Positions 56,761 through 57,298 of a stretch of DNA of 64,000 nucleotides are shown here, one piece after another. Position 1 is the first letter of the stretch. Every line of letters begins with the position of its first letter. The stretch lies in the IMG/VR virus record IMGVR_UViG_3300007517_000005, positions 21,512 to 85,511 of that record; one strand, given 5' to 3'. The notes beneath the pieces are model-generated. The model saw only the letters and a program-made list of their open reading frames with translations, did not search any database and was not told the DNA's origin. Position numbers and translations under genes: made by a program. The DNA is from a virus.

Positions 56761-57131
56761 ATGTATACCAACCACTCCCCAAAGAAGTACCCACTAGGTA
56801 TGGATGTAATTACACCCAATGGTGTAATGTACATTGAATGGAAAGCCCTGTGCGTTAAGCTAGGAGTGACGAAGGCTAAGGCATTGCTACGGAACTGGGA
56901 GACGGCCCGAGATGGTCGTTACGCTAAAACACCCCACAAGACAGAGCAAGGGGTATTCATACACTCCCCAAGGGTCGTAGCCTACGGCACTCTAGTACCT
57001 ATGGGTGTATGGACTACTGGGGCATCACCCAGGTCCACTACAGAGGCTCCCTACCAAGCCCCAGTAAGGGCAAGCCTGTGGAGACTGCGTGGTCCTTAAT
57101 GAAGAAGGCACTACTATACAAACTATTCTAG
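56761..57131 (+). pseudogene. Gene probably frameshifted by a 26-bp family B element
   Basis: AGGAG RBS; removing 56967-56992 (CACTC duplicated) gives GVFIHSSTYGCMDYWGITQVHY...KLF*. Confidence 0.55.
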
Positions 57132-57298
57132 CAACGCTCAGAATGCTTCCTCGCTGTACACTCCCCAAGGGTCGTAGCCTAGCAACGCTCAGAATGCTCA
57201 GAGCATCCTGCGAGGAGGGAGCGTAGCGACCTACGGCACTCGGAGAGGGGACAAGAGCATCCTGCGAGGAGGGAGCGTAACGACCTAGCAACGCTCAG
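57128..57298. mobile_element. Nested composite of hairpin elements A[D[E[B[A[D]]]]]
   Basis: A and B occur alone elsewhere in the window; D and E occur in simpler nests. Confidence 0.8.

Follow-up and report, generated by a model that had tools for sequence, protein, structure and literature searches.

Nested Candidate Ultra-Small Hairpin Insertion Elements in a Relative of the Jumbo Cyanophage My-WqHQDG

Results and Discussion

The Phage Record and Its Relatives

The window analyzed here is a stretch of 64 kb which corresponds to bases 21512–85511 of an 85.5-kb IMG/VR record (G000) of a freshwater cyanophage with a CheckV completeness of 51%. It contains a portal gene and two giant polymerase-like open reading frames (ORFs). 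Comparison of an HNH protein and tblastx revealed phage My-WqHQDG (OR578706.1, 162,978 bp) as a relative of the record. My-WqHQDG is a lytic jumbo myovirus for which CRISPR spacers predict mat-forming Microcoleus as the host (10.1101/2023.04.12.536658); the same preprint puts genomes of this lineage at more than 200 kb. Two further IMG/VR contigs, G001 and G002, overlap over 32 kb with 99.997% identity and were merged (P2). According to tblastx, P2 spans the portion of the My-WqHQDG map that is missing from G000. Thus, G000 and P2 are complementary pieces of similar phages, and the only sequence common to both consists of the small units described below and a HEARO element. The idea that the units had been exchanged between unrelated phages was dropped on the basis of the same tblastx comparison.

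Closer relatives were found as Logan contigs from three other runs of ice/aquatic metagenomes (X2, X3 and X4), which are 92–98% identical to the region under study; the runs are filed under three studies and may belong to a single campaign. Megablast of positions 55000–61000 against GenBank phages gave no match. A search of viral contigs with the nucleotidyltransferase of the window retrieved no relative, and its 84% homologue P0002 retrieved from metagenome contigs only relatives of at most 48% identity. An independent assembly of the probable source run contained 99% of the sampled sequence words; therefore, the composite described below is not an artefact of one assembler. The two 343-amino-acid ORFs flanking the element-rich region are not paralogues.

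Five Small Units with Defined Targets

Five types of small hairpin-forming units, A to E, recur in the record. Their lengths are 22 nt for A, 23-24 nt for B, 20-21 nt for C, 27 nt for D and about 30 nt (net 27 nt) for E. With a dot marking the element ends, A always reads YTA·GCAACGCT-NNN-AGCGTAGCGAC·YTA, B always (A/C)CT·CCCCAAGGGTCGTAGCC(A)TACGGC·ACT and C always ACCT·CCCTGTCGGGAGTGCTAACG·ACCT. The target motif of A, B and C is present in one copy at empty sites and in two copies at filled sites. Each of these units occurs in a single orientation relative to its asymmetric target (A 19/19, B 13/13 tabulated copies, C all intact copies). The YTA target of A is usually followed by a purine. 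The arms of the units are 8-bp inverted repeats, and the target repeat measures about 3 nt. Overall, the apparent flanking repeats are 3 to 7 nt long. The right ends sometimes match a non-consensus left flank (ATTTA, ACTTA), and the trinucleotide at the right end shows weak co-variation with the left flank (TTA..TTA, CCT..CCT; Fisher P = 0.05 and 0.08). Taken together, free-standing copies of A, B and C were found at more than 30 unrelated loci, and every copy has a target repeat of its own. D always lies directly 5' of GGGAG, whether it sits in the A loop or in an HNH gene. E occupies the centre of the 21-nt D palindrome, where it replaces 3 nt and is found in either orientation. Inserts within intact genes have lengths of 24, 27, 48 or 54 nt, and those between genes or in damaged genes 25 or 26 nt.

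In the stem of B 98% of the aligned cells pair, and two base pairs covary (UA/CG 5x, AU/GC 4x); none of 500 shuffles reached the observed score. This covariation points to selection on the hairpin itself. A conserved U-G pair, which is possible on one strand only, suggests that one particular strand folds. Neither promoter-like nor terminator-like sites coincide with the composite described below or with full units, and an Rfam scan of positions 54400–61000 at E <= 1 revealed no family.

Some smaller features were observed beside the units. A 13-nt tandem duplication lies at 23218–23243, C occurs as a C-C tandem, and a 19-nt insert is flanked by ACGACC. A C-like 19-nt module with AAGGAG is located 11-12 nt upstream of two start codons (57620–57649, 58715–58733).

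A Six-Layer Composite

Positions 57131–57296 consist exactly of A[D[E[B[A[D]]]]], in which brackets enclose the unit lying inside, followed by a 9-nt stub of A (Table 1). The parse is based on reading of the sequence and on blastn-short of the five units, as defined from free-standing copies, against the 85.5-kb genome. It confirms the layering proposed in a preliminary description of this DNA: all halves match free-standing copies (22/22, 12/12, 16/17, 20/20, 16/16 and 16/17). When the layers were peeled off one by one, the canonical units returned (A 27/27, B 30/30, E 31/32). This match to the units is far beyond chance. Every junction within the composite follows the normal target of the unit inserted there.

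The entry point of the composite is CTA·G, on the stop codon of the ORF starting at 56761, which ends at TAG 57129–57131 once its frameshifting B is removed. Since A starts with G, the TAG is regenerated and the position is harmless. The folding energy of the whole composite exceeds that of shuffled sequences only modestly (z = -2.4); thus, one giant hairpin is not taken as a selected feature.

Simpler composites, which the preliminary description had also listed, do exist: A[D] at 56377–56430, D[E] at 59316–59369 on the minus strand and C[A] at 22739–22790 and 59381–59426. A[D] is present at four sites. Beyond these, positions 60220–60353 hold one A and then A[D[E'[B']]], in which the E[B] block is turned round within D, and C[A[D[E]]] was found in the second phage contig (G001:36372–36452).

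Table 1: Units and composites in the window (positions are those of the window).
Feature	Position	Strand	Evidence or remark
C, 24 nt in frame, SLALPTGR, in minus-strand 3897-aa ORF	10959–10986	+	missing in My-WqHQDG orthologue
B, 27 nt in frame, FPRVVAYGT, nucleotidyltransferase gene	22577–22603	+	missing in 9 homologues
C (24 nt) and C[A] (48 nt), in frame, nucleotidyltransferase gene	22719–22790	+	protein homologues
B, 27 nt in frame, AAWLRLPRS, AGT-flanked, nucleotidyltransferase gene	23140–23166	-	alignment
A, 25 nt in HEARO	28992–29016	+	insert relative to Rfam consensus; missing in both P2 paralogues
B, 26 nt in HEARO	29134–29163	-	missing in P2 HEARO copy 2
A[D], perfect-stem variant, ACT-flanked	56374–56433	+	60-nt block missing in X2, X3, X4 (56373 joined to 56434)
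B, 23 nt + ACT repeat, 26-nt insert	56963–56988	+	frameshifts ORF 56761–57099; missing in X2, X3, X4
Target CTA, left copy	57128–57130	+	overlaps TAG stop (57129–57131) of ancestral ORF 56761
Outer A left arm, GCAACGCT	57131–57138	+	blastn-short against free A
Outer D left half, CAGAATGC	57139–57146	+	blastn-short
E left half, ends with ACT = B target left copy	57147–57162	+	16/17 to free E, 59330–59361 minus strand
B left part, ends with CTA = A target left copy	57163–57181	+	22/22 to B at 56963, E = 9e-8
Inner A[D]	57182–57233	+	92% to A[D] at 56377; D 26/27
Inner A[D], parts	A left arm 57182–57189; D 57190–57216; A loop/right arm 57217–57230; CTA repeat 57231–57233		
B right end CGGC + ACT repeat	57234–57240	+	12/12
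E right half	57241–57254	+	20/20 over 57237–57256, E = 1.5e-6
Outer D right half, GAGCATCCTGCGAGGA	57255–57270	+	16/16
Outer A loop + right arm + CTA repeat	57271–57287	+	16/17
Truncated second A, GCAACGCTC	57288–57296	+	near relatives lack 57132–57296 and with it all of the stub but its first G
B, gives ORF 57650–58066 its stop	58042–58071	-	27 nt missing in X2, X4; present in X3
D[E], 18 aa in frame in HNH_3 gene, directly 5' of GGGAG	59316–59369	-	protein homologues
C[A], gives HNH_3 ORF its stop codon	59381–59426	+	
A, then A[D[E'[B']]]	60220–60353	+	second unit 60244–60350 (107 nt) missing in X4

Filled and Empty Sites in HEARO Copies, Proteins and Near Relatives

Four independent comparisons indicate that A, B and C are discrete insertions: the Rfam consensus of HEARO, three HEARO paralogues, protein homologues, and presence or absence in close relatives. 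For all three units both filled and empty target sites were seen, and composites made of such discrete insertion units agree with the earlier statement that they did not arise by slippage.

The HEARO element (IscB omega-RNA) was located by Rfam at 28785–29054. In the alignment to its consensus the 25-nt A appears as an unaligned insert, and another A lies within a hairpin loop. Alignment of the three paralogous HEARO copies, one in this record and two in P2, reveals four separate events. The first A, flanked by CTA..CTA, is present only in this record, a reverse A (TAG..TAG) only in P2 copy 2, and a reverse B (AGT..AGT) is missing only from P2 copy 2. One older A is common to all three copies.

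The nucleotidyltransferase encoded at 22189–23235 was aligned with nine homologues. B, C, C[A] and B appear as clean inserts of 9, 8, 16 and 9 amino acids, respectively. The inserted peptides are FPRVVAYGT for B, LPVGSAND twice for C, and AAWLRLPRS/SAAWLRLPR for the reversed B; SNAVSVAT, encoded by A, is nested in the second LPVGSAND and represents C[A]. The closest homologue, P0002 (84%), carries exactly one C at the C/C[A] site and the other homologues carry none. By this alignment, the single C of P0002 represents an intermediate stage. Compared with the orthologues of My-WqHQDG, an 18-amino-acid double-B insert was found in a macro-like gene and an 8-amino-acid C insert in the 3897-aa polymerase-like ORF. 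A search of the 162,978 bp of My-WqHQDG for A to E revealed no copy of any unit.

The near-identical phages differ from the record by whole units. In contigs from the three other runs position 57131 is joined straight to 57297, so that all 165 nt are missing, and the junction reads ...TTCTAG·AGCCGG. All but the first G of the stub at 57288–57296 falls within the missing 57132–57296. Neither the 60-nt A[D] nor the B of 26 nt at 56963–56988 is present in X2, X3 or X4. In X4, 60243 is joined to 60351, with loss of the 107-nt A[D[E[B]]] and retention of the first A; three letters (CTA) are common to both sides. The B at 58042 is present in X3 and its 27 nt are missing in X2 and X4. Conversely, the relatives hold inserts which are missing here: behind 58086 they carry a B-like insert of 26 nt, and 59256 is followed by a B; the latter is also found in P0121, a 91% identical protein, as LPKGRSHAA. 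Altogether, units were gained or lost at least eight times within 4 kb of sequence that diverges by about 5%, with coverage gaps in the relatives' contigs excluded from this evidence. Loose ends of this comparison, such as an A beside D[E] in X4, probably derive from other loci and were left unused.

Nesting and Possible Transfer of Composites as Blocks

The preliminary description had postulated a hierarchy of sequence-specific targets. This hierarchy is real, as one unit offers the target of another: B and C offer that of A (CTA), E that of B (ACT), the A loop that of D (GGGAG) and the centre of D that of E. The targets comprise, however, only 3-5 nt. A sites are strongly enriched within or next to other elements: five of 16 are located there, and these elements make up 1.7% of the genome (P = 6e-6). 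As composite copies may not be independent events, the effect is at most this strong. Such nesting can also reflect selection, another element being a harmless landing site in a compact genome.

We propose that the layers arose via successive insertions, the outer one first. Nesting would be favoured where an existing element offers a selectively neutral landing site with targets in or near its hairpin loop. When an outer A moves, a nested composite would ride along as cargo, as the four sites of A[D] and the blocks of 60, 107 and 165 nt suggest. At site 57131 no intermediate stage was seen in the relatives. Since the 165-, 60- and 107-nt composites are missing as wholes, composites may travel as blocks carried by their outer A instead of being built layer by layer at 57131. 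The six layers may thus have come together at another place and arrived at this one with the outer A.

Proposed Mode of Insertion

We consider it fairly probable that ultra-small hairpin insertion elements, none of which carries a gene, have accumulated in this stretch of a lytic jumbo cyanophage with kinship to My-WqHQDG. The units are among the smallest mobile DNAs seen. One strand of an element, as single-stranded DNA or possibly RNA, would fold into a hairpin, and a putative nuclease or transposase acting in trans would paste this hairpin in fixed polarity 3' of the target trinucleotide, similar to the "peel-and-paste" of HUH enzymes. We favour such a single-stranded, HUH-like paste only weakly and rate it clearly below an even chance. 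It is suggested by the fixed polarity, the strand-specific covarying hairpin, the small size of the units, which would not permit a double-stranded synapse, and relics of trans-mobilised IS200/IS605-type elements. These relics, a remnant of TnpB and three HEARO copies that lack both iscB and tnpA, must themselves have been moved in trans. On the other hand, the weak co-variation of right end and left flank resembles a true target-site duplication, and HUH transposition produces none.

Searches for the corresponding enzyme covered the phage sequences. Y1/HUH (PF01797), RVT_1, rve, DDE_Tnp_1 and DDE_Tnp_4 domains were not detected in G000, G001 and G002, which are fragmentary records of about 330 kb in total, and Y1 (PF01797) was not found in My-WqHQDG. 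Neither Pfam and PHROG scans of 38 ORFs of the window nor Pfam scans of 30 yielded a transposase, and two HNH_3 domains were all that turned up in the way of nucleases. The moving enzyme might be one of these HNH_3 nucleases or a protein without known family. With regard to copies elsewhere, the A pattern was not found in 185,579 prokaryote species genomes, A not in 61 genomes of the Kamptonema family and C not in 401 sampled cyanobacteria. In IMG/VR, C was not found outside this phage lineage, and a degenerate A pattern and a B pattern matched only G001, G002 and one 9.4-kb contig. The lack of A and C in the candidate hosts searched argues against a host enzyme which also spreads the units in the host. 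It is conceivable, though rather doubtful, that the units represent a phage-specific class of smallest mobile DNAs, that is, single hairpins of 20-27 nt which move through a folded single-stranded intermediate, enter 3-nt targets in fixed polarity by means of an enzyme new to transposition and take earlier insertions along as cargo. If so, genomes of one phage species would differ mainly by micro-insertions.

Second to the HUH-like paste we rank a process without dedicated enzyme. During replication and recombination of the phage, polymerase template switching or microhomology-templated repair would copy the units, with hairpins stalling the fork and CTA, ACT and ACCT serving as switch points. 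Flanking repeats of 3 to 7 nt, the small duplications nearby (the 13-nt tandem, the C-C tandem and the ACGACC-flanked insert), the imprecise joining of E and D, the confinement of the units to one phage lineage in the collections searched and the failure to find a transposase in G000, G001 and G002 all fit this idea. However, whole units with identical ends occur at dozens of sites in strictly fixed orientation to the target, and the stem covariation implies selection on the hairpin. Moreover, right ends copying a non-consensus left flank (ATTTA, ACTTA) are not expected when a donor is copied from a microhomology primer. We therefore regard enzyme-free template switching as unlikely.

The units could also be ordinary miniature inverted-repeat elements (MITEs), whose 8-bp arms serve as terminal inverted repeats for a DDE transposase that duplicates 3 bp at YTA or ACT and would be encoded by the host or by the part of the phage genome outside the record. 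IS5 targets YTAR, and IS5/Harbinger-type elements make 3-bp target duplications. The 3-nt repeats that partly co-vary with the locus and the YTA target of A, usually followed by a purine, would agree with this. Double-stranded DDE cut-and-paste nevertheless seems unlikely because, given the stiffness of DNA, 22 bp would be too short to bring the ends together, and elements of 20-24 bp would hardly fit a double-stranded synaptic complex. In addition, the units keep to one orientation at a target that is not palindromic, the arms covary rather than staying constant, rve, DDE_Tnp_1 and DDE_Tnp_4 were not found in G000, G001 and G002, and no longer autonomous relative turned up. The MITE explanation is thus improbable.

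Status of D and E

A further explanation, already named in the preliminary description, is that the simpler forms derive from one long ancestral hairpin element by deletion of its apical parts. D and E provide the arguments for it. D was seen outside A only once and E never outside D. Neither has flanking repeats, and E takes the place of 3 nt of D, so they could be indel variants instead of separate elements. At the HNH site distant homologues carry neither D nor E, the 91% identical relative P0121 has an E-less D at the orthologous position (SSQDAL-SIL) and this genome has D[E], which amounts to two events in either direction. By sequence comparison E is a discrete 27-nt gain or loss, and a single unit with indel variants may underlie both D and E. 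That the relatives differ by whole blocks would also suit deletion.

For A, B and C, however, the explanation fails. As free-standing units they are found at more than 30 unrelated loci, with a separate target repeat for every copy, and the empty state is ancestral by the Rfam consensus, the HEARO paralogues, at least nine protein homologues and the element-free My-WqHQDG. Furthermore, E[B] is found within D in both orientations. As A[D] sits inside A[D] in the six-layer composite itself, which needs an insertion, a deletion origin of the composite as a whole would be hard to sustain. Hence deletion is a very improbable general explanation, although it may hold for D and E.

RNA-Templated Insertion and Functional Cassettes as Improbable Alternatives

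The composites had initially been read as products of guided or target-primed insertion from an RNA template, with a retron or group II intron as examples of the master locus. Apparently one strand folds and varies in a G-U-compatible manner, and the orphan omega-RNA (HEARO) together with the TnpB relic speaks for a past passage of RNA-guided nucleases through the genome. Against this, RVT_1 was not found in G000, G001 and G002, and neither was a reverse transcriptase, group II intron, retron or master copy. A master copy was likewise found neither in viral nor in prokaryotic collections, and positions 54400–61000 contain no Rfam family at E <= 1. The targets measure only 3-5 nt, and duplications of variable length or tails do not occur. 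This reading is therefore unsupported, and we give it very little weight.

Equally remote is the notion that the hairpins are regulatory modules (terminators, processing or ribosome-binding sites) shuffled by recombination like PeSL cassettes: the C-like AAGGAG modules upstream of start codons and the stop codons provided by some units (58042, 59400) would fit, but units occur in both orientations relative to transcription, many copies lie inside ORFs, in frame or frameshifting, and no promoter-like or terminator-like site falls on the composite or on full units. The PeSL cassettes of T4-type phages consist of an early promoter and a stem-loop between genes.

Comparison with Known Small Mobile Repeats

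Very small mobile repeats have been known since 1989-2008 from cyanobacterial small dispersed repeats (SDRs), yeast mitochondrial GC clusters and REPs; to our knowledge, nobody knows the movers of most of them. The nearest analogues of A to E are the SDRs of Nostoc. Elhai and colleagues reportedly described in 2008 (Genome Res; cited in PMC3116915 and PMC5861425) SDR4-6 of Nostoc and other Nostocaceae as gene-less hairpins of 21-27 nt which are dispersed and have short specific insertion sites. The SDRs are also said to occur within one another and within other repeats. We know of no enzyme that mobilises them. By description, A to E are alike in being small, gene-less, dispersed hairpins with specific sites and mutual nesting from the cyanobacterial world. 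Unlike SDRs, they are viral and were not found in the cyanobacterial genomes searched (A, C). The repeated 3-nt target, the fixed polarity, the six-deep nesting and the presence or absence between near-identical genomes also set A to E apart.

In IS200/IS605 elements, PATEs and REP/REPIN sequences with RAYT Y1 enzymes, imperfect hairpins set the active strand and non-autonomous copies are moved in trans (PMC6006769, PMC3116915, PMC3733652). A to C share the single orientation 3' of a short asymmetric motif, and IS200/IS605 relics are present in the same genome. In contrast to these systems, no Y1 was found, each unit has one hairpin instead of two ends, and none bears a GTAG tag in the position known from REPs. 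Moreover, A to C differ from IS200/IS605 in having a second copy of the target motif at the right end, where it co-varies in part with the flank.

Mobile G+C clusters of yeast mitochondria are short palindromes with putative 2-3-nt target duplications, tandem or merged arrays and insertions in coding regions (Weiller et al. 1989; PMC4478555). Proposals for their movement involve endonucleases or reverse transcription (Wu and Hao 2015, PMC4478555). They are organellar, about 30-60 nt long and GC-rich in an AT-rich genome, whereas A to E form several unrelated families, each with its own target. We group the double-hairpin elements of fungal mitochondria with the G+C clusters as analogues. Rickettsia palindromic elements are palindromic repeats that add in-frame peptides to proteins (PMC3184786), and A to E are alike in both respects; the Rickettsia elements are, however, 100-150 bp long, un-nested and without defined 3-nt targets. 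SDRs, yeast mitochondrial GC clusters and REP/IS200-type hairpins are the nearest systems described, and A to E behave in a similar way; we claim membership of none of these groups.

Consequences for the Phage Genome

The units are found here in a compact viral genome with an element-free sister phage and near-identical relatives that differ by whole units. Exact junctions of empty and filled sites, target rules for five families and a short list of genes in which invaded and naive phages can be compared make the mechanism approachable. The units rewrite phage proteins, as seen in the nucleotidyltransferase, the HNH nuclease and the giant polymerase-like protein, which gain 8–18 amino acids. 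Elsewhere reading frames are shifted or stop codons provided. They are a real source of variation in phage genes and of errors in metagenome assembly and annotation.

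IS200/IS605-Type Relics

The HEARO (IscB omega-RNA) element of about 500 nt was found in three copies, one in the window and two in a similar phage, with 72–81% identity among themselves. Neither an iscB nor a tnpA gene is present in any of the three. The element belongs to the IS200/IS605 type, is non-autonomous and has spread through the phage lineage. A TnpB/Cas12f-like zinc-ribbon domain (PF07282, 39 bits) is also represented, by a short relic, and a unit of the hairpin insertion family A is inserted adjoining this relic.

Coordinates of the features (window positions unless stated otherwise)
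Feature	Position
HEARO element	28785-29300; L016:7565-8070; L016:18927-19420
TnpB/Cas12f-like relic	31851-31970
Adjoining A unit	31966-31992
GGGCCC-stem hairpin	41244-41283; 41928-41967; 43253-43292; 53100-53139
69-nt tandem repeat	53187-53415
13-nt tandem duplication	23218-23243
HNH_3 start codon	58737-58739
AAGGAG module	58715-58733; 57620-57649
Double-B insert	genome 13160-13230 (window -8350 to -8280)

Accessory Region and Other Repeats

Between 33500 and 64000, the 3253-aa ORF included, almost nothing matched the related Microcoleus phage My-WqHQDG at the protein level; the structural half is 65–90% identical to this phage. The half that lacks matches forms a hyperplastic accessory region, in which most composites of the nested units D and E are located. 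Four intergenic copies of a hairpin with a GGGCCC stem, each with TATTATTGTAC after it, surround the second giant ORF. They constitute a separate repeat family, possibly with a regulatory role. Close upstream of ORF 53450 a 69-nt unit stands in three copies in tandem; this unit shows no kinship with families A–E.

Small Changes at Genes

In the window, the first codon of the HNH_3 gene is ATC; in three related populations it is ATG (C>G at 58739). Taken with a 19-nt insert close upstream, this difference suggests that the gene may be inactive in the window's genome. A 19-nt module resembling family C and containing AAGGAG lies 11-12 nt 5' of two start codons. Relatives lack its copy at 58715, which has ACGACC repeats on either side. 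The module may represent a portable ribosome-binding site.

The nucleotidyltransferase gene is frameshifted by a 13-nt tandem duplication (GTTGATAGGCGTG twice), and when the duplication is left out, the reading frame runs on to a C-terminus that matches the closest homologue, P0002. Finally, the macro-like gene carries a 54-nt insert of two B units flanked on both sides by the 13-nt direct repeat CCATGCGGCACCT, which itself resembles the right end of a B unit.
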